Shown here piece after piece: positions 3,649 through 32,965 of a DNA stretch of 64,000 bases. Source of the stretch: a virus (Duplodnaviria; Heunggongvirae; Uroviricota; Caudoviricetes). The stretch spans positions 265,798 through 329,797 of IMG/VR virus record IMGVR_UViG_3300031992_004563, one strand, 5' to 3'. Under the pieces are notes generated by a model. It saw only the letters and a list, made by a program, of their open reading frames with translations. It ran no database searches and was not told the origin of the DNA. Position 1 is the stretch's first letter, and each line of letters starts with the position of its first letter. A program made the position numbers and the translations under genes.

Positions 3649-3654
3649 TTTCGT

Positions 3655-3700
3655 GGATCTAGTGGGATTCGAACCCACGTGTTACATATGTTCCAACCTG
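3655..3700 (-). tRNA. tRNA-like 3-prime half (T-arm GTGGG-TTCGAAT-CCCAC plus acceptor strand and an encoded CCA). No matching 5-prime half or anticodon arm could be folded.
   Basis: The minus strand reads …GTGGGTTCGAATCCCACTAGATCCA. The T-arm is canonical and close to that of the tRNA-Arg at 13159-13232. The complementary 5-prime acceptor strand GGATCTA was not found upstream. Confidence 0.3.
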
Positions 3701-4140
3701 CTTTCTACATGTTTAGTTTGATTTAATTTTCGTATATTGCTAAACCTCAAACTAGCCAACAATATCTTAAGCTATTATAATTTCAAATTTGTTTAATAGC
3801 ATCACAAATTCTAATATCCAATATTTCTGCACCACTATAATCAATTCACCCTTGGATTATGGGTTTGAGTGATGTATGGTGAAATTACCTTGTAACTTCA
3901 TTAAGCGTGATCTTACTGTACTTCAGATCAAGCAGCCATAGCGTATTCATCTTCGCCATTTATTATTTTCAAAGAACATTTATTAGACGCATATCTTTAT
4001 GGCGTCACATGCTTACAAATCAAAATCAATGCAGTCAAAACCAAATAGACCCATAATTTTAATTTATATATTTATTATAAACAAAAACTGTAAAAAGTTT
4101 CAAAAATAAATATAAAAATAAAAATTTATTTTTGAATAAA

Positions 4141-4450: not shown

Positions 4451-6601
4451 ATGTCAAAAAAATATACAAATAAAAGTAAATTATTAGGAAAGATTGGCAC
4501 TGAAAATTATAGAGTATCAAATTGCCCAGTACATTTACCTAAAGAAAATGTCAAGTTTTTTATGGCAATGCAAGATGCAGGAAATAAAGATCCATTTTCT
4601 TCTAATACATGGAGTAATCAAATTACGCCTGATTGGATGAAACCATTTCATGAATCTGTTGTATCTGCAATTTCTAAAGGAATTAAAAATGCATTAAATG
4701 AATCAAATGGTCTTGTGTCTGAAGAAGAATGTCTAAGAGCAAATTTGGTTTGTTTATATGATCATTCAGAACAAAATAATTTCTTTATTATTAAAAATCC
4801 TAGTGTAGAAGATATTAAAGAAATTGGAACATTTCATGATAGATATTATTGGCATAAAAAGGATACAGACGATAAAAAAGATCGTTTGATTGCTGATATG
4901 ATACAATGGGCGTTTTATAATATTAAATTAGATGGGTTAACTAGTATAGAATATGATGATGAAAATGTTAATTTATGTAGTTTTGGTTTAAAAAATGATG
5001 AAGAACTTTATAAATCTGTATATAAATTATATTTAGATAAAGATTAGTGGGCAGATAGTTCAAAATTATTAGATAGATTAAAATATGTTTTAAATATGAT
5101 TGATCAAAGTGTATTAAATAAACGAGATCATTATGGTTTTGGACTTGGTACACGTTTGTCTTTCATTGAATATTTTTTTAAAGAATATAAAGAAAATTTA
5201 GAACGATATAATACAAAAGACGATAAAGATTATTATTTAAAACGCATAAAAGAAAAGGAACAAATATTGTCTTCATATGATTCATTTAAATCATATATGA
5301 AAGATTAGGTTAAAAAATCTGTATGTGCTGGTGATTCTAGTAGTGCTACACTATTATTGAATTTAAAAACTGAATAGATTTTTGATCAAGCACCTAAAAC
5401 AATAATTCATTTTATAAAAACATTTCAAGAATATAAAGATGAAATGTATAAAATTTTAACCGAAGATCATAAATTAAAAGAATCTCAAGAATTTGATTTT
5501 AATTCTTTATTAAATGAATCACAAGTAAATTTAGCAATTGATGATTTTGATTATAGTGATGCATCAATAAATAATGTAAAATCTGATATAATTGATGTTA
5601 ATGATGTCATTAAACATAGAATTGAATTAAATAAATTTAATGAGTTATGTGAAAAGGTAAGTGTTTTCAATATCACTTCTAATGAATTTTATCAAATTTG
5701 TAAATTACATAATTAGTATGGTTTTAAATATACTGTAAAAGCAGGCACAGATGGCAATGCTGAAGAATTATCAGAATTAATTGAATACATTACAAAAAAT
5801 ATTGATACAGAAGTTGATTTAAACTGGATTGATGTTACTTAGATAACTGATATGTCTTATCTTTTTAATAAATCATAGTTTAATGGTGATATTTCAGAAT
5901 GGGATGTTTCTAATGTAAAAGATATGGCACATATGTTTGACCAATGTGCATTTGATGGAACATTCTCAGATATTTCTGGGTGGGATGTTTCCAAAGTTGA
6001 ATGGTTTGATGGAATGTTTTCATATTCGCCATTCAATAAACCAGATATTTGCAACTGGAATATGAAAAATGCTCATAGTACGACTGGAATGTTTACTGAT
6101 TCAGTATTCTGTCAAGATATTTCAAATTGGAATCTTCCATTAGGATGTGATGTAACTCATATGTTTAGCGCAGATTTCCCACAAAGTTATAAGCCAAAAG
6201 TTATTAAAGACATAATTAAAAAAGCTAAAGACGAATTCGATGAAGATGTTGAAGATTAGGAATCATTTGAAGATGAAAGAATTCGTAATGGATATGATGA
6301 TGACACAGATGATTCGTATAATGATGAAGATGATTCAGATGTTAATGAAGGATTTGTATTTGAAGGCGAATGTGCAGGAGATTGTGGTGGTGTTTCAGGA
6401 TCTTATAATATACCAATGAATACTGTTGGTGTTGGAAATATTGTTCCTGCTGGTACACCCGCAATGACAGGATCACAACAAGCAAATGATTCTTAGAATG
6501 GTTCTGGTGATATTACCATTCCCACATCGTCGAAGAAAAAATCAAAAACTAAAATAAAAGAAAAAGAAACTTTATACTTTCCTATCGCTGTCAAGAAATA
6601 A
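4451..6601 (+). CDS. BspA/DUF285-type repeat surface protein (repeat FNGDISxWDVSxVxxMxxMF) with an acidic C-terminal region; 8 in-frame TAG codons
   Basis: Four track ORFs (4451, 5096, 5444, 5924) all lie in frame 2 and are separated only by TAG codons (5045, 5306, 5381, 5714, 5840, 5876, 6257, 6494). There is no TAA or TGA in frame until 6599-6601. The DUF285-like repeats are clear in the 5924-6259 segment. Confidence 0.6.
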
Positions 6602-6699
6602 TTAATAATTAATAACTAGAAAAGGATTTATCTTTCCGTTAATTACAAGTAATTATTTTAGGACTCCGCGACGAAAAGTTTTTTCGCTGCAGTGTATTA

Positions 6700-7440
6700 A
6701 TGAAAAATATTAGTAAACAAATATTAGAAGCTGTACATAGAGGTATTCAATTGGCACTAGATGATATAGAAAATAATGATTTAAATAATTCTATATCATC
6801 TAAAAATGATATCATAGATAGTGAAGATTATATTACAAATAAAATAAAGTTTGAAAAATTATCTAAACAAATTCATAAATATTTAGATGATTCATTATAT
6901 ACAAGTGAAAATGAAAAATTAACATAGGCAATATTTGATATAGCAGAAATATGTAAACATTTTCCATTTAAATTTAAAGTTTCTACAGAATTTGAGCTTA
7001 TATATATTATTGATGTATTAATAGTTAATGACCCTGAAATAAATTTAAATTGGGTAGATACATCTAATATAACCCTTATGAAACGATTATTTATGAATAA
7101 AAAATTCAATGGTGACATTTCAAAATGGGATACATCTAATGTAATTAGTATGGATAGTATGTTTTATGGATCTACATTCAATGGTGATATTTCCAAATGG
7201 AATGTATCTAAAGTTAAAAATGCTAATCAAATGTTTGCACATTCAGATTTTAATTCACCTATTGGAAATTGGAAATTTAAATCATTGCAATCTGGCGATG
7301 AAATGTTTTGGGGAACAAATTTTAACCAAGACATATCAGAATGGGGTGATTATATATCAAAAGATGAAACAATAAGAGATTTATTAGTTGGTGCTAATAA
7401 ACTTAGAAAGTATAATAGGCCAAAGGGCTATAATATTTAA
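6700..7440 (+). CDS. Second DUF285/BspA-type repeat protein; one in-frame TAG (6925-6927)
   Basis: ORFs 6700-6927 and 7078-7440 share frame 1 and are separated by a single TAG with no other stops. Repeats FNGDISKWDTSNV…MF, FNGDISKWNVSKV…MF and FNQDISEW are present. Confidence 0.6.
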
Positions 7441-7472
7441 ATAATAAATAATAAAAGAATTAATTTTAATTT

Positions 7473-7823
7473 ATGGAACCAAAAGAAAGAACAGAGAGAA
7501 CAGCTTATCCAAATGGCCCAAAGGTTAGTGTTGCATCAGTAAATGATGGAGGCGATAATCTTGGTCAAGATTTTAATTTGGATTCTGATGATACTAATGC
7601 TGATACATATTTTGAAGGTGGCGATTTAAATTTTGAAGATGATAATGCACCATCTACAGAAGATATTGAAAAAGCTGAAGAAGAAGTAAAGAAAATGTCT
7701 GATGAAGAAATTAAAATTAAAGCATTAAATCAAGCTGTTAATGTTGCAAAATTAATGTCAAATGTTGGAACAGATGATGTTATTGAAATTGCAAAGAAAT
7801 TAGCTAAATTTATTAAAGGATAA
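7473..7823 (+). CDS. Acidic protein with a conserved C-terminal helix (…ALNQAVNVAKLMSNVGTDDVIEIAKKLAKFIKG)
   Basis: 116-aa ORF. The N-terminus is D/E-rich and the C-terminal 35 aa are paralogous to 7860-8261. Confidence 0.5.
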   Translation: MEPKERTERTAYPNGPKVSVASVNDGGDNLGQDFNLDSDDTNADTYFEGGDLNFEDDNAPSTEDIEKAEEEVKKMSDEEIKIKALNQAVNVAKLMSNVGTDDVIEIAKKLAKFIKG

Positions 7824-7859
7824 TAATTAAAGAATAATAAAAAATATATCAAATATATT

Positions 7860-8261
7860 ATGAACGTTAATTTACAAAAGTTTATTGAAGAACATATGCT
7901 TCCAAAAAATGAAAAACCCCTAAATGAAGGTGAAATGCTTTAGGAAGATGTTCTTAATGAAGATGATGTTAATGAAGCAAATGAGTCAAAGCCAATGACA
8001 GAAGAAGAGCTCAAAATTGAATCATTAAAAATTGCTACTAATATTGCAAAGTTGATGTCTGATGTAACTACTGATGATATTATTACTATTGCTGATAAAG
8101 TATCAGGTTTTATTCGTGATCACCAAATTGGTTCTGAAGAAACTAAATCTGAAGAATCAGATGTAGCTGCTGATTTAGAATTACCATCTGATGAAGAAAG
8201 TTCTGAAGAAAAACCAGAAGAATCATCTGAAGAAAATAAAGAAGAAAATTCTGCTGAATAA
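7860..8261 (+). CDS. Paralogue of 7473-7823 with an acidic Ser/Glu-rich tail; one in-frame TAG (7941-7943)
   Basis: ATG at 7860 is in frame 0 with the track ORF 7995-8261. The shared motif LKIESLKIATNIAKLMSDVTTDDIITIADKV matches the upstream gene. Confidence 0.5.
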
Positions 8262-15145: not shown

Positions 15146-15179
15146 AATGCCAATAAACTTAAGTTTGTTGGCATTTTTT
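15146..15179 (+). terminator. Hairpin terminator (AATGCCAATAAACTT…AAGTTTGTTGGCATTTTTT)
   Basis: Inverted repeat plus T-run after 14275-15126. Confidence 0.5.
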
Positions 15180-15231
15180 ATTAAAATAAATATAAAAAGT
15201 TATGCGATAAAAAATAATTTTTAAGAAAAAT

Positions 15232-18006
15232 ATGGTATATAAAAATTTAGGTTTGCCTGCTACATTAATTCATAGTGTTAATGGCAAGAAATATACTTTA
15301 AATGGAAAATTATTGGCAGTTAATGAATCTTCAAAAACATGTACAATGCAATTTGGAGATAAGCAAAGTGAAAATATTCCATTAACAGAAGTATATTTAA
15401 ATGAAGCTGCATTATCAGATCTTATTAAAAAGACTGGTAAAAAACTTAAAGATGTTGCTGGCAAATTATGGGAAAAAATTAAAGGAATTGCTAAAATTGT
15501 TGGTGGTTGGTTAGTTCCAGTTGATCAAGATGGAAATGAGTTAATTCAATACATTAATAACCCACTTAACTTAGCAGTAATGCCACTTCCTTCATCAATT
15601 TCATATGCTCCATCAGAAAGAACAATTGCATTATGTGAAGAAAATGGTGCTAAAGTTCGTAACACTGGTTCATTAGATGAAGCTTTTGGATCATTAATTG
15701 ATAATGATAAAAGCCAAATTGAGACTTATTGGTCAAGAGTAATGAAGGAATATGTTAAAAATGAAAGTTTAACATTAAGTGATACAGTTAAATTGGTTAA
15801 TGAATCATATTATCAACGCGAAACAATTGATGGCACAGAACCAATTAATGAAGCGGTGGTTTCATTAAAATCACCAAATGAAAGAATGTATGGACGTTTT
15901 GTAAATACAAATGAATTAATTAAATTAATTACAGACAATATTTTCCACCAAATGCATCCATTATATGTTCATAAAAAAGGTGATAGTTATGTAAAACCAC
16001 TTTTAATTTGGGGTGCTCCTGGTATTGGCAAAACAGCCGTTATTAAACAAGCTGCTAAATTTATGAAAGAAAACTATAATACCAAGCTTGATCTTGTTAC
16101 TATGGCATGCGGTGGTATTAAAGTGGATGACTTCAGTTTGCCAGATACAGCTAAAAACCAATATGGTCAAGAAATTGCAGTTGAAATTCCAAAAACATGG
16201 TTACCTGTATATGATATCGATGGTTTATCAAAAGAACAAATTGAAAGACTTGATGCTTTTTATAATAGTGGTAAATATCGTATTAGAGACTTTATGTCAG
16301 ATGACCTTAAAGATAGAAAAGATAAAAATGGTGAAAATGTTTTAAGCTTGGAAGATAATGGTGTTGGTGAATCATATGATGGTGGTATTTTATTCTTCGA
16401 TGAGTTTGCTCGTTTACGTCAACAAAAAGTAATGGATGTAATGATGACTCTTTGTGGTGATAGAACATACCAAAAAATGATTCTTGCATCAGGTTGGTCA
16501 ACAATTGCAGCTGCAAACCGTCTTACAGATGATAAACTTCCTGAAAATAATGTAGACTTCCGTTCTTTATGGGGTGAAGCAATGAAAACTCGTTTCACAC
16601 ACTTAACATTTGTTCCAACAAAAGTTGAATGGTTAAGATGGGCAAGAGAAGTCAATGAAGATGGATACCAAAATGTTGATGAATTAATTTGTAAATTTAT
16701 TGAAAAATCACCAGATGGTGTTTGGTATGATGCATTAGACTTTGGTTCAAGAGAAATTGCAGATCCAGATGTTGCAAGAATTCTTGGTGTTGATGCATCT
16801 TCCAAAGGCGCGAAGGGTGGTTCAAGTTCAAATGGAACATGGGGTACTAATGATTTAACACGTGATGAATTAAGAAAAGTTTCTAAATACAATTCAGATG
16901 TAAATGCAAATGTTGATAACATGGAAATGATTGCATGGAATGGCCGTACATGGGATCAAAAAATCTCACGTGTATTCTTAAGTGGTTTACGTCAATTATT
17001 CTATGGACATCCAGATTGGTACGAAGATTGCTTCTCAACACAAAAACGTGTTCGTGAATTAAATGGTGGTGCAAGTTCAGAAGAATATATTGTTAAAAAT
17101 ATAGATGTCAATAAATTAAAAACTCAATTAAATAAAGTTCCAAGAGATAGATGGTTCAATTGGACAAAAGGTATTTATGAAAAAATTGATCCAAGCCAAA
17201 ATTCAAGAAATAATGATAGATATGATTTCTTAATGAAATATCTTGGATATATTATTGAATCTGAAACAGGTAAAGGTGGTGTTCCAAGTAAAGCATGGGA
17301 TCATTATAACAGTATTGATTCAGTTATTGATGAAATTGATATCCGTGAAATTTATAATAAAGGACAACTTAGAAGCACAGCTGCAAGAAGAGATGATAAT
17401 ATGTTATTTGATACAATGGCAGATTATAGTCAAGCAACAGCTGTTAACTGGAAATCTAATATTGCAAATGTTGATGAAGTTATTTCTATTGTATTAGATG
17501 CACTTCCAAAATACATTACAGTTGATGAAATTATTAAAGATCAAAAACGTATTGAGAAATTTGCAGGTAAATATGCTGCTACTCCTGCTGATTTACAAAT
17601 GTTTAAAGATGAATATACTTTGCATTTAACAGATGAAAATGGAAAAGAAATTAAAACTGTTCCAACATTATTCTCAAAAGCACTTGAATATAATGAAGAT
17701 CTTGAAGAAAGAGTAACATTTGTATTAAAACAATCAGGTGTTGCTAAAAAACTTGCAAATGTTGCAATGTGGATTTCAAAAGTTGCAATTCAAATTAATC
17801 AAAATACTCCTATTACAGCTGCACTTGGTATTGAAGGTGAAGCAACCGATGGAACACTTGCAGATAGAGTATATAAGATTATGGAAGGCAATCAAGAAGC
17901 AATGGCATTCTATGAAAAAGATTCAGAAATTAGAAAATATAGAATCATGGATCCTGCAATTGTAATTTTGAAAGCAATGAGATTCTATAGAGAATCACAA
18001 CAATAA
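15232..18006 (+). CDS. Large AAA+ ATPase (MoxR/CobS/AAA_5-like); no in-frame TAG
   Basis: 924-aa uninterrupted ORF. Walker A LLIWGAPGIGKTAV, Walker B GGILFFDEFARL and a sensor-1-like motif STIAAANR. Confidence 0.75.
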   Translation: MVYKNLGLPATLIHSVNGKKYTLNGKLLAVNESSKTCTMQFGDKQSENIPLTEVYLNEAALSDLIKKTGKKLKDVAGKLWEKIKGIAKIVGGWLVPVDQDGNELIQYINNPLNLAVMPLPSSISYAPSERTIALCEENGAKVRNTGSLDEAFGSLIDNDKSQIETYWSRVMKEYVKNESLTLSDTVKLVNESYYQRETIDGTEPINEAVVSLKSPNERMYGRFVNTNELIKLITDNIFHQMHPLYVHKKGDSYVKPLLIWGAPGIGKTAVIKQAAKFMKENYNTKLDLVTMACGGIKVDDFSLPDTAKNQYGQEIAVEIPKTWLPVYDIDGLSKEQIERLDAFYNSGKYRIRDFMSDDLKDRKDKNGENVLSLEDNGVGESYDGGILFFDEFARLRQQKVMDVMMTLCGDRTYQKMILASGWSTIAAANRLTDDKLPENNVDFRSLWGEAMKTRFTHLTFVPTKVEWLRWAREVNEDGYQNVDELICKFIEKSPDGVWYDALDFGSREIADPDVARILGVDASSKGAKGGSSSNGTWGTNDLTRDELRKVSKYNSDVNANVDNMEMIAWNGRTWDQKISRVFLSGLRQLFYGHPDWYEDCFSTQKRVRELNGGASSEEYIVKNIDVNKLKTQLNKVPRDRWFNWTKGIYEKIDPSQNSRNNDRYDFLMKYLGYIIESETGKGGVPSKAWDHYNSIDSVIDEIDIREIYNKGQLRSTAARRDDNMLFDTMADYSQATAVNWKSNIANVDEVISIVLDALPKYITVDEIIKDQKRIEKFAGKYAATPADLQMFKDEYTLHLTDENGKEIKTVPTLFSKALEYNEDLEERVTFVLKQSGVAKKLANVAMWISKVAIQINQNTPITAALGIEGEATDGTLADRVYKIMEGNQEAMAFYEKDSEIRKYRIMDPAIVILKAMRFYRESQQ

Positions 18007-18031
18007 TTATTAAAAATAATTAAATTTGAAT

Positions 18032-18060
18032 AAAGGCATATTTTATTAAAGTATGCCTTT
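18032..18060 (+). terminator. Hairpin terminator (AAAGGCATA…TATGCCTTT)
   Basis: Inverted repeat directly after the ATPase stop codon. Confidence 0.5.
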
Positions 18061-18101
18061 ATTTATGTAAAATAAATATAAAAAATATTAAATAGAAAAA
18101 T

Positions 18102-19127
18102 ATGTCATCTATATTTAATGGGCAATTTGGAAAAAATACTACAGATGATCAAAAACGTACATATCAATGGCATGAAGATCAAGAGACACGATCAAAATAC
18201 CAATATAAAGAAAGATATAAAAGTATAAATATTTCCAAAATATTAGAAGATAAAATTCCATTAACAAGTGGTGGATATATAACAATTAAACCTGCAGCTA
18301 TTGCAGATGATGTCAAGTTAATGATGGATGAAATGAGGCGAGATCCAAAATATGAATTTATTAAGCCTTATATTCAAAAACCTGTTATTTGGACATATGA
18401 AATAGGTGCAGCATTAACAGATGGTATTCGTATTTATATGTCACCAATATTTGCAGCAACATTACTTAGTTCAAATCCTAGAACTGGTATGGGTGGTAAA
18501 GAAGCAGATGAATTTTGGAATAATTTAAATCCTACCGAACAACGTGATTCTAAAAACCGTGCACAATTCAGAATGATGAAAACTAAATATGTTAGATTTG
18601 CAATTATTCATGAAGTTTATCATATCATATATAATCACGTTAGACGTGGTATTCTTAAATATGGTTCAAATCCAACTAAACAAGAACATGATGTTGGTAA
18701 TATTTCAATGGACCTTGAAATCAATAGAGATATTGAATCAACTTTTCCAGATTTAAGAGGCTCAACAGAAAAAATTGGTGCAATATGGTATATGCATGAA
18801 AAATTCTTTAATAAAAATGGTAAGCCATTTATTAAAGATATTTGGGAAGATATATGGGATGATTTTATGAATAGAAATAAAGATTTTGATCTTTCTGATC
18901 CATTTGCAAATGAAGGAGCAAATCCTGTTCAAGAAGATAAAACTAAACAAGGCCCATTTGCAGATGGTTGGAGAAAAGCTGTTGATGCAATTAAAGGTAA
19001 AATGATTGATCCACGAACATTTAATATACCGGGTGGCTCTGGTACAATTAGTGGAAATATTAAAGACGCTTTAGACCAAATATTTAAAGCTGCCGCTGAA
19101 GGAAATGGTGTAGAAGATGAAGACTAA
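18102..19127 (+). CDS. Putative zinc metallopeptidase-like protein (HExxH: FAIIHEVYHIIYNH)
   Basis: 341-aa ORF without TAG. The HEVYH motif lies in a helix-like context. Its position between the AAA+ ATPase and the VWA protein recalls DUF2201-type metallopeptidase+VWA proteins that pair with MoxR ATPases. Confidence 0.5.
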   Translation: MSSIFNGQFGKNTTDDQKRTYQWHEDQETRSKYQYKERYKSINISKILEDKIPLTSGGYITIKPAAIADDVKLMMDEMRRDPKYEFIKPYIQKPVIWTYEIGAALTDGIRIYMSPIFAATLLSSNPRTGMGGKEADEFWNNLNPTEQRDSKNRAQFRMMKTKYVRFAIIHEVYHIIYNHVRRGILKYGSNPTKQEHDVGNISMDLEINRDIESTFPDLRGSTEKIGAIWYMHEKFFNKNGKPFIKDIWEDIWDDFMNRNKDFDLSDPFANEGANPVQEDKTKQGPFADGWRKAVDAIKGKMIDPRTFNIPGGSGTISGNIKDALDQIFKAAAEGNGVEDED

Positions 19128-19147
19128 AAATAATAATTAATTATTAT

Positions 19148-21727
19148 ATGAAAAAAGAAAAGATTAATACTGATAGATTATTTGGAAAGCCTTTAAACGA
19201 AACAGACATTTATTAGGTTCCACCAACAGATGAAAATGGAAATGTTCATATGTTTTCAATTGATTAGCTTGCTGCAATTTATGAAGCAATGAAGCCATTA
19301 TTAAATGCATAGGAATTATAGGATTTTAATGATATGTCTCCTGAAGATTAGGAACAATATTTAACAGGCTTTGGTGCAAATATATTAGAATGGAAAAAAG
19401 CTAAAGAAGCAGCAAATGATCCTGACTCAGACGAATAGAAACCTGGTATGCCAGGACAACAACCACCAGAAGATGGTTTAGACCATTGGCAACCAGTAAA
19501 AAAATCAAAAAATAAAAGTCAACAAGGATAGCAACCAAAAGGCAATAAAGTTTATTCAGATATTCAAGAAGAACTTGATAAAATTGAATAGGAAAATCAA
19601 TAGGCTGAATAGGATGCAGAAAATAGTAACAATCAATCTGCTGATAGTAGTGATGCATAGGATATTGCAGATAACGCAAATGATATTGCATCTTCTGCAC
19701 AAAAAATGGCAGATGCAGCTTAGGCCGCTGCTGATGCTGCACAAAATGCGGCAGATTAGGCAGATGAAAATGCTCGTGATTCCGGCTCACCAAAGGATGT
19801 AAGAAATGCTGATAGATCTTAGAATTCAGCAGATGCTGCATAGGATTTAGCAAATCAAGCAAAAGAAGCAGCTGAAAGAGCATCTCAATTAGCAAAGGAT
19901 GCATAGGAAGCTGCTGATAGAGGTGATACATTAGAAGCTGAAAGAAAAACTAAAGAAGCGTATGATGCGGCTAAAGAAGCATCTAATAAAACTAGAGCCG
20001 CATAGATAAATGCAAAAGATGCATTAAATGCAAGTAAATAGACAGCACAAAATCAACCTGGCCAAAATGGTCAAGGACAATCAGGTCCAGGTCAAAATGG
20101 TCAAGGACAATCAGATAGTGATATTAATAATATGTCTGCATAGGATGCTGCTAATGCTGCTCAACAATCTGCTACAAATGCTCAAAATTAGGCAAATCAA
20201 GCATAGGCAGCCGCTGATGCAGCATAGGAAAAAGCAGATACATCTGGAAGTTCGGCTGATTAGGCAAAAGCAGATGCGGCTCAATAGGCAGCCGATAATG
20301 CTCAATCAGCTGCTGATTAGGCATAGGCCGCTGCTAATGCTGCTCAACAGGCAGCCGACAATGGAAATACATCTTCAGCACAACAATAGGCAAAAAATGC
20401 AAGAGATGCTGCAAATAGTGCTCAACAATATGCTCAGTCTGCTCAATAGAATACTGGACAATCTGGTCAACAATCTTCACAAATGTCAGGAGGCGAATCA
20501 GGTCAGAAAGGACAAAACAGTGAATAGGGTTCTGGCCAAGAATCTAATTCACAAGGCCAAAGCCAAGCTGGTTCAAATTCAGGTCAATTAGATCCAAATG
20601 GACGTCATGGATAGATTGGTAAACCTGGACAATAGGGCCAACAAGGACAACCTGGTGATATGGATGATGCCGATACAGACCCAACATTAAAAAAGGTTGA
20701 TAATAAATTTGACCAAAATGGCGAAATTGTTCATAAAAGGCCTGTAAGTCTTGATATGCCATTTGATGGAAATGATTTTGTTGCAAATGATGAAGAAATG
20801 AGAGAAAAATGTCGTGAAATGGCAGAACGTGCAGGTCAGCCACTTGACGCAGATGATTATATTTCTCCACAAGAATATGCTACAAGAAAATATCAAGAAG
20901 CAAAATCTGCATTACAAAAATGGAAACAAAATACACCTGGTTCTGCTGGTAATCCTCCTGGATATCTTACAGAAGTAATGGATAGATTATTTGCTACAGA
21001 AATTGATTGGCGTGATTTAGTTCAAGAATTTATGACAGATAAATCACCTGAAGATATTATTGATGTATGGTCTAAACGCCGTATGGGATTGCCTGATACA
21101 CACCCATTCCATAGAGGAAGATATTTGCATCCTTATGAAGATTTTGAAGAAAGAAGATCAGGTATTGCACAAGTATTCTTCTTAGTGGATGCATCTGGTT
21201 CTATGGGTGTAACTGCAGGTGATGGCAGAAATATATTTGAACATATTATGTCAGAACTTATTCAAATTGAATTATAGGTTAAAATTAAACGTTCTGCATA
21301 TGCAACATTTAATGCTGGTCATATTTATAGAGATGATATTTTCACTTGGACATATCAAGATGCAATGGATGAAGAATCATTAATGGAAGAATTTAAATTA
21401 CCTTCTGCTGGTGGTGGAACATCTGCAATAGAGGGTATTAAATCTATTCAAGAATATGAAGATGTATATAGTACAAATGACCCATGGACATTATTAATTG
21501 TAGTAACTGATGGTGGTGACTATTATGAAGGATTAAAAGATATTTGTAAAGACCCAGAATAGGTTGAACATATGTTATGGATTATAACAGCCGAAGGCGA
21601 AGATTATTTTAAAGGCAGAATTAAAGCTTTAGGTGAACAAGGTGTTCCTAGTGATCATATTGTATGTGTAGATATTAATAAAGAATGGGGTGTAGATGAA
21701 GAAATGGTTAAAAAGAGCAAAAGATAA
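19148..21727 (+). CDS. von Willebrand factor A (VWA/MIDAS) domain protein with a long N-terminal Ala/Gln-rich low-complexity region; about 40 in-frame TAG codons
   Basis: ATG at 19148 is in frame 2 with track ORFs 20660-21277 and 21365-21562, and there are no TAA or TGA codons until 21725-21727. The MIDAS motif VFFLVDASGSMG is present. TAG codons replace CAA/CAG in parallel AAQ-AADNA repeats. Confidence 0.65.
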
Positions 21728-21796: not shown

Positions 21797-23752
21797 ATGA
21801 AGAGAAATTTAAATGAAAATGCACATTTAGACGAAGGTGTAAAAATTTGTGTATCTGAAATTCGTAATGATGATCAATCAATGGATTGCAATGAATTAAG
21901 AGATATCTTTGTTGAAGAAGGTGCTGAAGTAGAAGGCAGTCATGGTTTTTATGATGGTGCGCCTGCAACATTCATGACAGTTTACAATTTAAATAAAGAT
22001 AGAGTTGTAGAAATTCTTCAAGATTTTTTAAATGCATCTGAAGATGTAGCTCCAGCAGAAGACTATATTCAAGAAGATGAAGAATTAGAAAACGATTTTC
22101 CTGCATATGAAGACGTTGAAGCTGAAAATGATTTAGATCCTGAAGAAGATGCATTAAATGACGAAGCATTATTAGAAGGTGATAATATTCTTGATGATGC
22201 TAAAGAAGAATTAAGAGATGTATTATCACGTATAGATGATGAGATTTATCTTAGTTATGATGGAATTGTATTGGATACTGTTTTATCAGATGACAATTTA
22301 ACCGTATATTCTATTGATTCTGATGGTAATATGGAAACTAATGAGGAAGATATTGTAAATGCATTTGATTTAACAGATGCCGATGATATCTTTACATTAT
22401 GTGACGTTATTAAAGATGCTTTAGAATTTGATGCTCAATATCCTGCATATGATGACGTTGATATTGATGACGATGAATAGCCACGATTTGAAAAAATGAA
22501 ACGTCATGGTCGTCTTGATGAAAAGAAGAAAAATGATTGTTGCCCAGGTACAGGTAAAGTAAATGAGGCTGAAGCAATTGATGCAGTATTAACTGATATT
22601 GATGCACAAGTTTTAAATGAGTCTAAAGAAGCTGAAGCTAAAAAACAAAATGCATTAGAAGTTAAAACTTTAAAAGCATTATCTGAAAATCAACATTCAT
22701 TACATTCTAATATTAGTTATAATGGCAAAACATTTGATAAGATGACACTTAAAGAGTTAAAGAATTTATATGAAACTGTTAATGCATCTGTTGAAGAATT
22801 AACTAATAAAACACTTAATGAAAGTGCAATAGATGAAAAATTATTAAACACAATTAATAATAAGAAACAACTTCTTAACTATCTTGATGAAGAAATTACA
22901 TACAGAACAACTCGTATGGAATGCTTAAAGAAACTTAATGAAGATGGCGCTGAAATTTCTGATGAAGAATTAAAGAACTTATTTGGACCAGCACAAGGTG
23001 AAGAAGAAACACCTGCTGAAAACAAAGAAGAATCATCTAAGGAAAATAAAGAAGAAAGTTCAGAAGAAAACAAAGAAGAATCATCTGATGAAAATTCAGA
23101 AGAAGATGGTGAAACTGTTGAATTATCACGTATTGTAATTACATTAAAAGATTCTGAAGCCGCAAATGATTTAAAACAAGCTTGTATTGAAGCAGAAATT
23201 CCAGAAGATGCATTTGAATTAGAAAATGTTGAAGAAGAATCAGCAACTGAAGATGAAGAAAATTCAGAAGAAAATAAAGAATCTGATGAAAATTCAGAAG
23301 AAAATTCAGAAGAAAACACTGAAGAAAATGCAAATGAATCTTATGAATATGCTAAATATGTTAAGTATTTAATGGAAGGTGAAATTCCTACAGAAGAACA
23401 ACCTGCAGAAGAAGCTCCAGTCGAAGATCAACAACCAGAAGAAAATGCTGAAGAAAATTCAGAAGAAAATAAAGAATCTGATGAAAATTCAGAAGAAGAT
23501 GAAGAAGATAAACAACCTAAATTTATTTTAACTAATACAGATTATGCATCTAAATTAGCTAAAGTATTAGAAGATGTTTATGGAATTTCTAAAGAAGAAT
23601 TCGAAGAAATGGTTGGTGGTAAAATTGTAGAAGAAGATTCAGAAGAAGAAAACAAAGATGAAAATTCTGAAGAAAATAAAGAAGAAAGTTCAGAAGAAAA
23701 TAAAAATGATGAGGAAGAAATTGATCCATCAGATTTATTTAAAAATCTCTAA
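21797..23752 (+). CDS. Hyperacidic repetitive protein (ENSEENKEES repeats); one in-frame TAG (22478-22480) joins the two track ORFs
   Basis: ORFs 21797-22480 and 22496-23752 share frame 2 and are separated by a single TAG. D/E content is extreme. Confidence 0.45.
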
Positions 23753-24149
23753 TATATGAATTACAAGCGCATCCAATTTTTGAATTGGGTGTTTGCTCGT
23801 TTTTCAATTAGTTTTCATTTTTAGAAGGAGTGGCTTGTGAAAGTCATTCCTTTGTTTATATAATAAACAAAACAATATATAAATCGTATAATAATCAAGA
23901 TATAGTGTTTTTATGATAATAAATAAACTGAAAAATGAAAACTAATTTTAATGAAGATAAATGAATTTATCAATATTGCTAAAGAATTTATTATAACACA
24001 ATATAATAGATTTATTGTTTTTGTTAAAAATGTGTTTAATAAAAAACCTAAAATAAATAAACAAACAGATAACAATGACATTCATATTGTAAAAGTTAAA
24101 GTTAAAAATGTCAAAGTTAAAATTAAATGAAAACTAATTTATAAACAAT

Positions 24150-25292: not shown

Positions 25293-25763
25293 ATGAATAC
25301 AATATATATGACATCTGATAGTGAGAATAAGTTGAGGTCAATATATACAAATTTAAAAAACTATTATATATTAGATGTATAGTCTTTTATAAAAAGTTTA
25401 AATTTGGATATGAATAAACAAAGTAGTATATTCATTATTAATGATGAAATACAAACTTTAGTGAGTTCATAGTTGAAACTTAAAAAATATAAAGGTGTCA
25501 TATATATTAATCATCATTTATCAAAAGAATTATACAATTCATTTAAACTTTATTTTTAGAAATGTGGAGAAGATATTAAAATTGTCTTAATTGACAATGG
25601 ATAGTTTCCAAAGCATTAGGATATAATGGATATATTTGATGAAGTTATTTTCTATGAAAGATTTAGAAAAAATAAAATCGTAGAATTTAATGGTTTTGAT
25701 AAAAATCAAAATGACGTCATTAATAATATTAATATGGATGAAAATGATTTAGGCGATGAATAA
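25293..25763 (+). CDS. Small hypothetical protein with 5 in-frame TAG codons
   Basis: ATG at 25293. Frame 0 is open to TAA 25761-25763 apart from the TAGs. TAATG overlap with the next gene. Confidence 0.4.
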
Positions 25764-27907
25764 TGAAATACTTTACATTTGAATAGTTTAGTCGTTCTGA
25801 TACAGCAAAAAGGAAAAATATAGATAATTCTGTTCCGTCTGATCTTAGACCACATGCTGAAGAATTAATTAATAATATATTAGATCCTTTACGTGATGCG
25901 TGGGGTAGTGATTTATATTTAACCTCTGCCTATCGTGGTTATGCACTTAATAAAGCTGTAGGTGGTTCTACGACATCTGCACATTCTTATGCGTATGCAG
26001 CTGATTTAGTTCCAAAAAATGGAAAAACTCTTGAATTTAAAGAGTTTGCAATGAAATGGCTTCTTAATAATGGAGTCAATTTTGATTAGTTTATTGATGA
26101 ATATAGTGGAAAAAGTTCATGGGTTCATATAGGTATTCGTAATGGTAGTGGAAATTAGAGAAAACAATATTTAAAATACCTTAATGGAAAATACACATCA
26201 ATTAATCCAAATATATATAAGCCTGGTTCTAACTCACAATCTTCTACGTCATCTGCGTTACCAAGTTTTGGTGGTTCATCTTCTAGTTCTTCACAATCAA
26301 CAGGAATTAATGTTACTGAAATAACAACCGGTGGCAGTACACAAACTGGTAGCACTGAAGGATTATTAAAAGGTCGTTCAGTCTATTTAAAAGATATAGA
26401 TTATGAAGGCATTAAAGCAAACGATGTTTTTGCAAAAGATGAATCAGGTGAGCCATTGCTTGATGAAAATGGAGATTTTATTATTTCTGACGCATATTTA
26501 ATGGATGGTGCAAATGAATCTGAATCTGATGCTATTGAAAGCACTGATGAATTAGATCCAGAACCATTTGATTTTGATATGTCATCTATTACTATTGAAA
26601 ATACTGAATAGATGAAAGGCATTCAATATAATGCCGATGGTTCATATGTTGTTAAATAGAGTAAAACCATTCAAGAAATAATGGCATTAGTTCAACAATG
26701 GTGGCAAATGATTCAATCTTTAAAGAAAATTGATTTTAAACATATTTAGGATTCAATTAAAAACGTAAAAGCAGAGACTGAAAATGCAGAGACTCCATCT
26801 ATTAATGCAATGGTTTATATGAAAGCAGCATTCGATATGTATGGACATGCATATAGAGAAGGAATGACTTGCCCAATTTGTGGAAAGAAAGCAAGATTTT
26901 TACCACCTGGTGGATATTGTTCCATTGAGTGTTTGTTAAAAGCTGTAAAAGATAAATCACTTGCATTTCTAATGTCTCCTAATGATAAGTATGGTTGGCT
27001 TCAAGAAATTATTGATCAATTATGTGCGGTATTGGATTTAACAAATTTATTAATTAATTCAATAGTATTAATTCCTGACATTATTAGAGAATTGGCATAG
27101 CTTCCATAGGAATATAAAGATTATGTATAGGCAAAAATTGCTGAAGGGTTTGCAGAATTATAGGAATTAATTCAAAAAGCAATGGTTAAGAAAAATGAAT
27201 TGCTTGCAAAAATATTAAAACCTATTAATTTTGGTATTATTGCAAAACCTGTTGCAATGGCAATGCAGGTAATTGAAGTTATTAGAAATGCATTATAGGT
27301 TGCATAGGAAGCATTTAATATGGCATTTGATGTTGTTAAAATGATATTAAGTAAATTATCATTACCAAGTGTTGCACCAGGATTAGTTCTTCCAGCAGAA
27401 TCATTTGCGTGGTCATTAACTCCAAGATCATTTATAAGCCCAATGCCATATACATGCCCAGATGCAGGTAAAATATTTGTGGTTTTGCCTGGTGGCAGCG
27501 GTGCACCTATACAGGGTTTAAAACCTTTGTTGCCATCAGCACTATAGGATCTTAATATGGAATCAATAGATTCAGTAATTTAGGGATTATTTCCACCATT
27601 AACGCCAATGGATTATTATTTAGAGCCAGAATTATTTCAAATAAGATATCTGTTCAGTGATCAAAGTGATTTAGTTTTTTAGATTAGGCAACAATTAGAA
27701 GATTTTTTAAGATGCGGTCCAGATTATCTTCCAAAATTTGAAAATTTATTACCAATTAAAATGTTTACATTTGGAAAAGGCACACCTAATGAAATATAGA
27801 TTCCACTTCCAAATATGGGATATTTATGGTTTTTATTAGGATTACTGGATGCATGGGCACCTCATAGCCAATCAATGGTAGGAAGTATATTAAATCCTGC
27901 AATATAA
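25763..27907 (+). CDS. Large protein with an N-terminal peptidase M15 (D-Ala-D-Ala carboxypeptidase/lysin-like) domain; many in-frame TAGs; candidate tail-associated lysin or tape-measure-like protein
   Basis: Motifs LTSAYRGYALNKAVGGSTTSAHSYAYAADL match the Zn-dependent M15/VanY-type fold. Track ORFs 26810 and 27320 and the TAGs at 25784 and 26087 are all in frame 2. Terminates at TAA 27905-27907. Confidence 0.55.
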
Positions 27908-31012: not shown

Positions 31013-32965
31013 TTACTTCACCTCTTTAAACTCTACATTATCCTTTTTAGATTTTGTATGTTTTACAGGTTCTTCTGTTGAAGGTGTTTCAACCTCTACT
31101 GGAATTTTTGATTCCTCTGGCTTTGGCAACGATGTTGTAGGTTGATTTTTACCAAGAAGATTCAAAATTTGAGGTTTAAGACCATCATTAACCATGCTAA
31201 CCATTGGAGCAAACTTCTCAAGCCAAGTCTTAGCAAATTCAGCGCTTGTATTCTTATCACCATAAACTGTAACATTGCCAAGTTGAATATGTTCAAGAGT
31301 CTTAGATTGTGCTTCAGCAATACCCTTCCATTGATCAGTCATCATATATTGAACAACTACCTCAGGATTTCCACCAGCGGTTTCAACCATTTGCTTAAAT
31401 GCAAGTGCTGGTGCCAATGCAATTTGTTGTTGCTGTTCAGCCTCTGCCATAAGAGATGCTCGTTTACCCTCAGCTTGTGCAAGCAAAATAGATTTTTCAC
31501 CTTCTGCATCTGCAAGTTTCTTTTTACGAATTGCTTCAGCTTGTGCTTCAGCCTCTTTCAAAATTTTTGCAGCGGCTGCTTCTGCCTCAAGTGTTGCAAC
31601 AGCCTTTGTCTGTTCAGCTTTAATTGTTGCTTGCTCTTTTTCTTTTTGAGCCTTAACAATCATTGTTGCTTGTAACTCGGTTTCTTGAGCTTTAGCCTTC
31701 ATTTCATTAACTTTCACTTGTTGTTCTTGCTCAGTTTGTGCAACGGCCATTCGAGCTTCAACCTTTGCCATACCAGTAACCTTTTCTGCTTCTGCCTCAG
31801 CCTTGCCTGCTTCTGCTTTTGCTTTAGCAACATCAATAGTTGCGGTCTGTTCTGCTACACCTGCCTTTTTATTAGCCTCTGCTGCTTTTTGACGGCGTTC
31901 AGATTCATATTCAGCAATGCTTGCTTGTTTCTTTTGAGTTGCCTCAGAAATCTTTGCCTCTTTTAATTGTTCTGCCTCAGCTGCTTTTGCTTCAGCATCA
32001 GCCTTTGCTTTAGCAACATTAACAGCTGCAATGGATTCTTGCTCTGCTTTTGCAGAATCAGCTTTTTGACCAGCAGTAGCAACTGCAATTGTTTGTTCTG
32101 CCTCAGCGTCGGCAACACCTTCAGCACGTTCCTTTTCAGCTTGCGCCAATTGAATTGCCTGATCCTTACGAGCTTGTGCAACTGCAACCTCTTGTTCCTG
32201 AACTGTTTTAGCAACTGTTGCCAATTGTTCACGCTCAGCCTCTGCAACTTGAATTGCTTCCTCCTTTTTAGTATTGGCAATTTTAATTTTACCTTGCTTT
32301 TCTTGCTCTGCAATATCTGCTTCTGCTTGCGCCTTTGCTTGAGTTGCGGCTTTCTTACCCAAGTTTACAATATAGTTTGCGTCATCATCAATATTAGAAA
32401 TATTAATATTAATAATACCAAAACCAACTTTATTCAACTCCAACTCAATCTTTTGCTTTGCATTCTCAAGGAACTTATTACGGTCAGCGTTAATTTCCTC
32501 AATAGGCATTGTTGCCATAATAGCACGAGTTTCACCAATAAGAATATCCTCAATTTGGCTATCCATTGCTCGTACATCAGAACTTAAGAAACGAGCTGCT
32601 GCATTTTGCATAAGGGTATCAGTTGTTCCAATACCAGTAATCAATGTTACAGGAATAGTTACTTTAATGTTTTGTGAAGATAGACCTGTAATATCGGCTT
32701 TAATCTTGTGAGGTACTAAACTCATCATTTTATATTCCTGGATAACTGGCCATACAAAAGTACCACCGCCATGAATAATTTTTGATGTAAGGATACGATC
32801 TACAGATTTACCATTTTCATCAAATGATTTCTTTGTGCCAGCCTTACCAAATACTACAAGAATTTGGTCACTCGGGCAACGACGATAGCGAGATAAAATC
32901 CAAATAGTTGTCAAAACAACCACAAGTACAATAACTGCTACAGTAATAAAAATTGATACATTCAT
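31013..32965 (-). CDS. Flotillin-like SPFH/band-7 domain protein with a long Ala/Glu/Gln-rich coiled coil
   Basis: N-terminal TM helix, an SPFH-like domain, then an EA-repeat flotillin-type region. 650 aa. Antisense ORFs in this region are low-complexity artefacts. Confidence 0.75.
   Translation of the reverse strand: MNVSIFITVAVIVLVVVLTTIWILSRYRRCPSDQILVVFGKAGTKKSFDENGKSVDRILTSKIIHGGGTFVWPVIQEYKMMSLVPHKIKADITGLSSQNIKVTIPVTLITGIGTTDTLMQNAAARFLSSDVRAMDSQIEDILIGETRAIMATMPIEEINADRNKFLENAKQKIELELNKVGFGIININISNIDDDANYIVNLGKKAATQAKAQAEADIAEQEKQGKIKIANTKKEEAIQVAEAEREQLATVAKTVQEQEVAVAQARKDQAIQLAQAEKERAEGVADAEAEQTIAVATAGQKADSAKAEQESIAAVNVAKAKADAEAKAAEAEQLKEAKISEATQKKQASIAEYESERRQKAAEANKKAGVAEQTATIDVAKAKAEAGKAEAEAEKVTGMAKVEARMAVAQTEQEQQVKVNEMKAKAQETELQATMIVKAQKEKEQATIKAEQTKAVATLEAEAAAAKILKEAEAQAEAIRKKKLADAEGEKSILLAQAEGKRASLMAEAEQQQQIALAPALAFKQMVETAGGNPEVVVQYMMTDQWKGIAEAQSKTLEHIQLGNVTVYGDKNTSAEFAKTWLEKFAPMVSMVNDGLKPQILNLLGKNQPTTSLPKPEESKIPVEVETPSTEEPVKHTKSKKDNVEFKEVK

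Follow-up and report, generated by a model that had tools for sequence, protein, structure and literature searches.

We analysed a 64,000-nt stretch of viral DNA (positions 265,798 to 329,797 of IMG/VR record IMGVR_UViG_3300031992_004563; G+C ~29%), referred to below as the window, and concentrated on three consecutive genes within it. The first encodes an AAA+ ATPase of 924 amino acids (aa) at 15232..18006, the second a 341-aa zincin-like protein with an HExxH motif (the HExxH protein) at 18102..19127, and the third an 859-aa protein in which a low-complexity linker precedes a VWA domain (the VWA protein) at 19148..21727. All three lie on the + strand, as do the other features given below unless a minus sign is shown, and the distance from the ATPase gene to the VWA gene is 1.1 kb. 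Neither the ATPase gene nor the HExxH gene contains an in-frame TAG codon; the VWA gene contains 33, read as Gln. A first-pass annotation of the letters alone had named this triad, its third member carrying a metal-ion-dependent adhesion site (MIDAS), and we confirmed it at these coordinates.

A megablast search of GenBank phages with the 6.5-kb region returned no match. With the ATPase as query, tblastn matched Prevotella Lak megaphages (~540-550 kb) only, with ~30% identity across 75-92% of its length. Among database homologues, the nearest to the ATPase shared 99% identity with it and the nearest to the HExxH protein 96%; members of the 90%-identity clusters of these two homologues sit on a 498,037-bp contig. 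Because the tblastn matches were to Lak phages only and the cluster members lie on that contig, we assign the window, by sequence relationship, to a Lak-like megaphage (~500 kb, gut) of a clade absent from the GenBank phage set.

Protein families of the three genes

The Walker A motif of the ATPase (GAPGIGKT) occupies residues 261-268, and its Walker B motif (ILFFDEFA) includes D390 and E391. Across 50 homologues, G261-T268, D390/E391, N429/R430 and R454 were invariant or near-invariant, the sensor-1 Asn and the Arg finger being among them. The protein comprises a beta-rich N-terminal domain (~1-60), the AAA core (~219-509) and a helical C-terminal region of ~380 aa (~540-924), and it is more than twice as long as typical MoxR-class members. 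The first-pass call of a MoxR-type ATPase was upheld in part by profile searches: Pfam AAA_5 scored 23.6 bits, over its cut-off of 22, and the protein was assigned to phrog_1297 of PHROGs ('ATPase', E 1.8e-22), although the part aligned to AAA_5 was confined to the P-loop segment (256-284). Among 177 homologous clusters, many carried PF07728 (AAA_5) and some PF07726 (AAA_3) or PF20030 (bpMoxR), and one bore the name 'MoxR-like ATPase'.

As a reference we used a gene pair of Aeromonas phage PhAER-4 (PQ495741), in which DUF2201_N and DUF2201 are confirmed by Pfam. Its 383-aa AAA_5 ATPase aligned with the AAA core of the window protein by hhalign (probability 98.6, E 1e-15). The structures closest to the core were of the MoxR class, with the beta-hairpin insert after strand 2 (helix-2 insert) present, and the nearest solved structures were CbbQ and NorQ. 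Searches of PDB sequences by phmmer and by profile, with the ATPase and with the VWA part, gave P-loop-level or chance matches only. The phrog_1297 assignment, the Pfam families of the homologues and the alignment to the PhAER-4 ATPase together support a MoxR/CbbQ/NorQ-type AAA+ protein.

In the HExxH protein the motif reads HEVYH (residues 170-174, nt 18609-18623). A non-helical, non-conserved context, which would have spoken against the first-pass annotation, is not what we observed: the motif falls within a predicted helix (162-176), and H170, E171 and H174 were invariant in 19 sequences, as was a DLEINRD motif (204-210). The tail of the protein (266-341) is disordered. PF13203 (DUF2201_N) matched 15 of the 19 family members, at positions ~57-180 and with a best E-value of 1.2e-6; the window protein itself was unmatched. 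On the phrog_1314 profile, the window protein covered positions 37-218 (E 6.6e-15). The conserved motif suggests peptidase activity.

The VWA domain of the third protein (21140..21724) contains DASGSMG, with MIDAS residues D681-x-S683-x-S685 (nt 21188-21202, D681 starting at nt 21188), Thr758 in GGT and Asp788 in TDG. The complete MIDAS motif that the first-pass annotation had read here is present, and its five residues (D178, S180, S182, T255 and D285 when the C-terminal piece is numbered separately) were invariant in 12 sequences. The Pfam families VWA, VWA_2 and VWA_CoxE matched 10 of these 12 family members weakly (4e-4 to 1.5e-3, below gathering scores), and the window protein gave E 0.076 with PF00092 and 0.19 with PF05762, also below gathering scores. 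PF09967 (DUF2201) matched none of the 12. Ahead of the VWA domain, at 20792..21049, lies what appears to be the helical C-terminal part of a DUF2201_N-like region (PF13203 positions 154-241 of 271, E 0.003, sub-threshold), and the hhalign alignment to the reference DUF2201 protein also covered this part. On phrog_1314 the VWA protein covered positions 172-377 (E 6e-5).

The HExxH and VWA proteins therefore match adjoining parts of phrog_1314. Their PF13203 matches complement each other as well, with positions ~57-180 covered on the HExxH side and 154-249 on the VWA side. Each half also aligned by hhalign to the PhAER-4 DUF2201 protein, residues 50-147 to the HExxH family (probability 94.8, E 5e-8) and residues 273-474, which bear PF09967, to the VWA family (probability 94.6, E 6.5e-8). 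The reference protein itself matched phrog_1314 at 6e-73, PF13203 at 4.5e-15 and PF09967 at 3e-8, and an AAA_5/phrog_1297 ATPase is encoded two genes upstream of it. The proposed resemblance of the two proteins to a split DUF2201-type protein was thus borne out at the level of profiles. Since the PF13203 parts are divided between the two proteins, the break appears to fall inside or at the edge of DUF2201_N, and the HExxH protein is, judged by its profile matches, the N-terminal (catalytic) half of that domain. phrog_1314 carries the label 'HNH endonuclease' (DNA/RNA metabolism). We rejected this label because its PhAER-4 member is DUF2201_N plus DUF2201 by Pfam; it is apparently a mislabelling that will spread to further annotations.

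Two results count against these assignments. A direct Pfam scan of the HExxH and VWA proteins gave no family at E <= 0.1, so DUF2201 membership rests on family- and profile-level evidence. A Foldseek search of the HExxH model against the PDB found no structural match (best E 1.7), so the label zincin is based on the motif. An NCBIfam search with the three module proteins likewise returned no match. Even so, we consider the identities of the parts, that is, the ATPase and the split DUF2201 halves, to be established with high confidence. Our explanation as a whole takes the module as the Lak-like-megaphage form of a catalogued pair, a phrog_1297 ATPase with a phrog_1314 DUF2201-type co-chaperone, together with the fission, the expanded insert and the mechanism and setting proposed below. 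We consider this fuller statement probable, with clearly less assurance than the identities of its parts.

Gene fission and the low-complexity insert

Canonical DUF2201 proteins are single chains. Unlike them, the window has the HExxH and VWA domains on separate polypeptides, a state most readily explained by fission of the gene where the junction is poorly conserved. The HExxH gene ends in TAA at 19125-19127 with further stops behind it, and the next ATG is at 19148. The order of the ATPase and VWA genes was kept in eight loci, and these loci included both fused and split forms of the partner. In Lak-A1 (locus L001, MK250016 9001-14450) and Lak-B2 (locus L002, MK250021 9001-14465), a single gene of ~855 aa follows the ATPase gene and encodes, in order, HEAYH, a low-complexity region rich in Q/S/G/D and a VWA domain with DNSGSM. 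Four further loci, L003 (on a 491-kb contig), L004, L008 and L009, have the three-gene arrangement of the window, with gene start and architecture conserved. Their HExxH-VWA junctions differ, with gaps of 17-35 nt or an overlap of 14 nt, and the stop codons are real, which indicates that the fission is genuine and conserved. The partner is also split in a third clade (~380-390-kb contigs).

At the locus of this ~390-kb clade that we examined (L006, ENA ERZ27319181 k141_154485), an IS607-like pair lies at 6065-7950, exactly between the HExxH and VWA genes. It consists of a serine resolvase and a TnpB (OrfB_IS605/Cas12f-like) with eight in-frame TAGs; this TnpB is adapted to the code of the phage. 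The insertion may hint at how fissions arise or persist.

When 1.84 billion proteins were searched exhaustively with the HExxH family profile, no more than 210 representatives reached E <= 1e-3, a mix of ~300-aa proteins and of 690-1133-aa proteins that matched at their N-termini. We read three of the long proteins. P0222 and P0226 extend to a complete VWA domain, and P0243 stops at the MIDAS motif. The motif that closes the HExxH gene (GW..A...IK.G.IDP.TF) is followed, in P0226 and P0243, by the one near the start of the VWA gene (E[WY]..G[YF]......W). A long low-complexity region comes next in all three proteins, made of Ala/Gln/Asp heptad-like repeats in P0222 and P0226 and Q/G-rich in P0243, and after it a GGND...AE..G.P segment and then the VWA motif. 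In the window VWA protein, the conserved N-terminal ~100 aa (19148..19447) contain the EQYLTGFGANILEW motif, and their motif order recurs within the fused P0226. We also observed that the HExxH protein has at its C-terminus a short motif (FADGWRKAVDAIKGK, window 19020-19124) similar to one near the N-terminus of the VWA protein (EQYLTGFGANILEWKKAK, 19340-19400); both copies also stand in tandem inside P0226 and P0243. The series of fused, split, and split forms with an insertion element at the junction marks a domain boundary and the pieces that must re-associate.

The first-pass annotation had placed an Ala/Gln linker of ~450 aa ahead of the VWA domain. A low-complexity stretch of this kind does exist, but it measures ~400 aa (residues 101-503, 19448..20656; A 21%, Q 18%) and holds 25 of the TAG codons. 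From its N-terminal end it runs through a Q/P/G hinge, an Ala-rich block (131-300), a Q/G hinge, a second Ala-rich block (331-455) and a Q/G/S hinge. The Ala-rich blocks are 26-33% Ala with 2-6% Pro+Gly, and the flanking Q/G/N/S/P-rich hinges have 27-31% Pro+Gly. Ala autocorrelation within the blocks peaked at lags 3, 4, 7 and 14, and a fused relative behaved likewise. Such periodicity is a signature of amphipathic helices or of an Ala-cored coiled coil, and the linker is probably rod-like in part. A tandem-repeat search of the linker DNA gave only trivial short arrays, which argues against a recent repeat expansion. The PhAER-4 protein has a G/S/Q/D/N-rich loop of ~70 aa where the megaphage insert sits; the insert therefore looks like an expanded, pre-existing variable loop. 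An expanded helical or low-complexity insert occurs family-wide, which suggests that the spacer matters.

In-frame TAG codons across the module and its relatives

The 54 long open reading frames of the window end in TAA (46) or TGA (8) and never in TAG, and they contain 84 in-frame TAGs. In alignments with relatives, the residue opposite TAG was most commonly Gln, then Lys and Glu. Given the lack of TAG terminators, the in-frame TAGs and the Gln opposite them, we read TAG as a sense codon, as in code-15 phages. No suppressor tRNA or RF2 gene was found within the 64-kb window, a result that does not extend to the other ~434 kb of the genome; the only such features of the window were tRNA-Arg(TCT) and a transfer-messenger RNA (tmRNA). 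The tmRNA gene (3651-4052, -) is full length, with the ARAGORN tag GEDEYAMAA and an Rfam RF00023 match of 81 bits (E 7e-30); here a tmRNA is encoded by a phage that has given a stop codon a new meaning.

The VWA gene, from ATG 19148 to TAA 21727, is a single open frame only with TAG as sense. All 33 of its internal stops are TAG, and because the first is codon 23 the gene would be untranslatable past codon 22 until TAG is decoded. When TAG, CAA and CAG were counted together as Gln-type codons, TAG made up 33 of 96 in the VWA gene and 0 of 42 in the ATPase and HExxH genes (Fisher p = 1.5e-6). The first-pass annotation had singled out the VWA gene as heavily recoded. This is correct relative to its two neighbours, but other genes of the window are recoded as well, namely those at 25763-27907 (16 TAGs), 4451-6601 (8 TAGs) and 25293-25763 (5 TAGs).

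The sharp contrast within the triad and the early position of the first TAG would suit an evolved switch on the VWA subunit, in which the ATPase and the peptidase are made early and the activating adaptor appears only after the suppressor is expressed. The HExxH and VWA genes are probably co-transcribed (see below), so only translation could separate them, and across the split clade the VWA gene holds the most TAGs of the three genes in each of the five genomes, though most TAG columns are unshared. Gln-richness alone does not bring TAG codons: an SPFH/Band-7 (flotillin-like) gene at 31013-32965 (-), whose product has a long Ala/Gln/Glu-rich coiled-coil-like tail, uses TAG for none of its 48 Gln-type codons. 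This gene shows gene-specific TAG avoidance, and the TAG load of the VWA gene is not explained by its Gln content alone.

The relatives, however, argue against a switch that is specific to this subunit. In four close relatives (L003, L004, L008 and L009) the ATPase gene has 1-4 TAGs and the HExxH gene 2-4, so all three proteins need suppression there; the TAG share of their HExxH genes (19-31% of Gln-type codons) was indistinguishable from that of the VWA gene (p = 0.74-1.0). Lak-A1 and Lak-B2 can be cited on either side, since their partners are also strongly asymmetric (p = 6e-7 and 6e-4) but in the opposite direction, with 9 and 5 TAGs in the ATPase gene and 0 of 77 and 0 of 75 Gln-type codons in the fused partner. 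The ~390-kb clade has no TAG in any of the three genes, though that phage uses TAG elsewhere. Even in the window, the conserved 356-aa C-terminal part of the VWA protein holds only 2 of the 33 TAGs, among 14 Gln-type codons (p = 0.06 vs the ATPase and HExxH genes). The earlier statement that TAG gates only the VWA subunit is thus true in this genome alone, and a device aimed specifically at that subunit across relatives is not supported. We consider the evolved switch an unlikely explanation.

Alternatively, the TAG load may be a by-product of evolution in a late, TAG-tolerant gene, whose fast-evolving, Gln-rich and loosely constrained N-terminus and linker would gain TAG from CAG, AAG and GAG while the constrained ATPase is spared. 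In the VWA gene, the N-terminal 100 aa and the linker together account for 31 of the 33 TAGs. TAG codons appear to turn over quickly, as 71 of 90 TAG columns were private to one genome, a count subject to the uncertain alignment of low-complexity sequence. Opposite TAG, alignments mostly show Q, K or E, all a single mutational step away, the per-gene pattern varies between clades, and recoded stops accumulate after suppressor acquisition (Borges et al. preprint). A by-product accounts less well for the conserved N-terminal 100 aa, where six of seven Gln-type codons are TAG, and for the gene-specific avoidance in the SPFH gene and the Lak-A1 fused partner, which points to gene-by-gene selection; the unreliable low-complexity alignments also detract from it. 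On this evidence we find the by-product explanation evenly poised.

Within the split clade, the relative TAG density of each gene was stable: the VWA gene and a gene for a ~156-aa protein had high values, and the genes for an acidic protein and for DUF6734 (described below) had values near zero. The density was also high in the M15-peptidase gene of the window, the sole locus where it could be counted. An association between recoded stops and late genes has been published for Lak and other phages, and stop-codon recoding has already been hypothesised to gate late genes (Borges et al. preprint). The stable per-gene density and this association fit a late-class reading of the VWA gene, which very probably belongs to the class translated only after the code switch.

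The code switch might also act as an assembly checkpoint in which the lock-bearer is interchangeable, as at least one partner of the ATPase-adaptor pair is TAG-loaded in each TAG-using clade, the VWA adaptor here and the ATPase in Lak-A/B. Under this proposal, a potentially dangerous remodelling and protease complex would form only once the suppressor is active, and the heptad-periodic Ala-rich insert would be a rigid spacer that sets the distance from the ring-bound MIDAS to the peptidase site. We regard this reading as quite improbable. Whichever explanation applies, the opposite TAG asymmetry in sister clades makes a clean test case for regulatory versus incidental per-gene recoding.

Neighbourhood, proposed role and comparison with known systems

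Two terminator-like hairpins, both found as pattern matches to the consensus, flank the block that begins with the ATPase gene and closes with the acidic-protein gene. The left one (15146..15175; 13-bp stem and T-run) follows the DUF6734 gene and the right one (23824..23853; 13-bp stem) follows the acidic-protein gene, which makes them candidate boundaries. The 16-nt intergenic element AAAATAAATATAAAAA had 11 matches in the window at <=2 mismatches, compared to 3.6 expected, and none of 100 shuffles reached 11. Three copies are exact, and the matches include those at 4103, 14019(-), 15183, 18069, 21747 and 24050. One exact copy (15183..15198) stands 34 nt upstream of the ATPase start and another (18069..18084) upstream of the HExxH gene; a copy with two mismatches precedes the acidic-protein gene. 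We regard AAAATAAATATAAAAA as a candidate promoter element of the phage. The VWA gene has no copy ahead of it, and since only 20 nt separate it from the HExxH gene, the two are probably co-transcribed. In the gap between the ATPase and HExxH genes we noticed by eye an AT-rich hairpin, AAAGGCATA...TATGCCTTT followed by ATTT (18030..18065), which was not flagged by the scanner (loop > 8) and is a possible, weak candidate for a terminator or attenuator. A sigma-70 promoter scan found 70 sites against 61 expected from shuffled sequence, which is no excess over chance, with a consensus that is unsuited to a Bacteroidota host.

The acidic protein (21797..23752; 651 aa, 31% D+E, 1 TAG, CCPG motif) had no Pfam or PHROG match. 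Its gene lies just downstream of the VWA gene in 8 of 8 loci from four clades and is near TAG-free in each; two of the clades have a small nucleotidyltransferase-like gene in between. MIDAS sites bind acidic side chains. With the synteny, this makes the acidic protein a candidate client or partner of the VWA protein, a speculation based on gene order. Further downstream are the gene for the 156-aa protein (25293-25763), with TAG for five of its eight Gln-type codons, a high ratio kept in relatives, and the M15 gene (25763-27907; 714 aa, 16 TAGs). In the M15 protein an N-terminal Peptidase_M15_3/phrog_894 'endolysin' domain is accompanied by a Cys-rich motif and an extended hydrophobic C-terminal part. 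On the other side of the module, DUF285 (BspA-like repeat) genes lie at 4451-6601 (8 TAGs) and 6700-7440, both on the + strand, and a DUF285 gene is also found near the module in L004.

In our reading, an ancestral co-chaperone with a zincin-like HExxH part and a MIDAS-bearing VWA part has undergone fission into the present HExxH and VWA genes, and its variable loop appears to have grown into the ~400-aa insert with two Ala-rich heptad blocks and Q/G-rich hinges. The mechanism that we propose is modelled on CbbQ-CbbO, NorQ-NorD, RavA-ViaA and p618-p892 of Acidianus two-tailed virus (ATV). In the infected cell, the ATPase would assemble as a ring, on which the VWA protein would dock, its MIDAS metal gripping an acidic residue of the client. 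The client would then be remodelled through ATP hydrolysis, and the HExxH protein, held by the VWA protein, would cut the client or the adaptor. That the HExxH protein is held in this way is probable because the two proteins together rebuild one DUF2201_N domain. The complex, its protease activity, its client and its timing are inferred.

Of the possible settings we favour virion assembly or maturation late in infection, though we place this role somewhat short of probable. A MoxR plus metallopeptidase-vWA pair of jumbo phages has been proposed as a virion-assembly aid with proteolytic processing (Iyer et al. 2021, PMC7824862). The TAG load of the VWA gene, the TAG-rich neighbouring gene for the M15/phrog_894 peptidoglycan hydrolase and the association of recoded stops with late genes favour a late setting. 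Other observations pull away from this role: there is no recognisable capsid or tail gene near the module, the TAG-free ATPase and HExxH genes of the window could mean an early role, and in Bacillus phage 0305phi8-36 the MoxR pair is among the non-structural genes. If the module is a true virion-assembly chaperone, it may help to build capsids for ~500-kb genomes.

The same early translatability would be expected of a conflict system for counter-defence or host takeover, in which the MoxR-vWA pair sets a threshold for, or delivers, a peptidase effector against host proteins. MoxR-vWA pairs do control effectors in conflict systems (Kaur et al. 2020), zincin peptidases of jumbo phages probably target host proteins (Iyer et al. 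2021, PMC7824862), and some distant ATPase homologues carry bpMoxR (PF20030). However, PADLOC, run on the three proteins and the reference pair, returned nothing beyond a P-loop-level ATPase match (E 0.005), and Pfam-level scans found no VMAP, iSTAND, FtsH or beta-propeller third component. The synteny is stable over at least four deeply diverged megaphage clades, whereas conflict genes are typically patchy. We judge a conflict function unlikely.

The adjacency of the ATPase to a VWA/MIDAS partner, with CbbQ and NorQ as the nearest solved structures, also brings to mind a chaperone for metal-cofactor insertion or enzyme activation like CobS-CobT, NorQ-NorD or CbbQ-CbbO, acting on a metalloenzyme of the phage or of its host. 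Annotations of large phages include CobS/CobT-like pairs. Here the partner gave no CobT, CobT_C, NorD or CbbO-type match, it has a zincin HExxH module that those systems lack, and the neighbourhood offered no candidate client metalloenzyme. This function appears very unlikely. Since there were no PADLOC matches, no effector-type third component and no CobT/NorD/CbbO-type domains, we rank both the conflict and the cofactor explanations below the assembly role.

MoxR-VWA pairs are widespread and mostly uncharacterised, and the zincin-bearing phage form has been described only computationally. Pairs with MoxR ATPases have been noted in phages since 2007, and a MoxR ATPase with a metallopeptidase-vWA co-chaperone has been described in group 2.2 (T4-like) jumbo phages (Iyer, Anantharaman, Krishnan, Burroughs and Aravind 2021, Viruses 13:63; PMC7824862). 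The first-pass annotation had regarded the arrangement as undescribed, which this earlier report contradicts. We found nothing functional in the literature on DUF2201, and the Lak phage papers that we searched do not mention the module genes.

The window module resembles the jumbo-phage pair and that of PhAER-4 in having the same two families by profile, with HExxH, MIDAS and Walker motifs, in neighbouring genes of a phage. It differs from them in its ATPase, which at 924 aa compared to 383 aa in PhAER-4 has added N- and C-terminal domains, and in its partner, which is split into two genes and has the ~70-aa loop expanded to ~400 aa. In addition, the window genome is TAG-recoded and has the conserved acidic protein downstream. 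The fused proteins of Lak-A/B, P0222, P0226 and P0243 share the motif order and a long low-complexity insert with the window proteins but are one polypeptide of about 690-1130 aa. Lak-A/B also have the same ATPase (30% identity over 92% of length) and the acidic protein downstream; their linker is Q/S/G/D-rich where that of the window has Ala/Gln heptads, and their TAG pattern is reversed (5-9 in the ATPase, 0 in the partner).

CbbQ-CbbO and NorQ-NorD are more distant. Their partners show no sequence-level family match to that of the window, CbbO and NorD have no zincin module, the clients of CbbQ and NorQ (Rubisco and NO reductase) are absent here, and the window ATPase is more than three times longer. 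A CobT-like reading was rejected, as Pfam scans at E <= 1 gave no CobT-family match. In ATV, the VWA protein p892 binds and stimulates the MoxR-type ATPase p618, and the pair has been tied to tail morphogenesis (PMC4124505). This too is a viral MoxR-VWA pair, but it belongs to an archaeal virus, has no peptidase module and is supported by biochemical evidence, whereas the window pair is known from sequence alone.

The first-pass annotation had also called the linker midasin-like and flexible, and we rejected this comparison. Midasin (Mdn1/Rea1) carries all its parts on a single chain, with six AAA modules and a linker rich in D/E. In the window the ATPase and VWA domains are encoded by separate genes, and the linker is on the adaptor, between the peptidase-like half-domain and the VWA domain; it is Ala/Gln-rich rather than D/E-rich and has heptad periodicity. 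Against these known systems, what appears new is a megaphage branch with a greatly enlarged ATPase, a three-gene fission, an expanded heptad and low-complexity insert and a TAG asymmetry between the partners that depends on the clade and can even be opposite. The gene pair itself is already known from PHROGs and from Iyer et al. 2021, and the module is a distinct form of that pair, not a new category of system.

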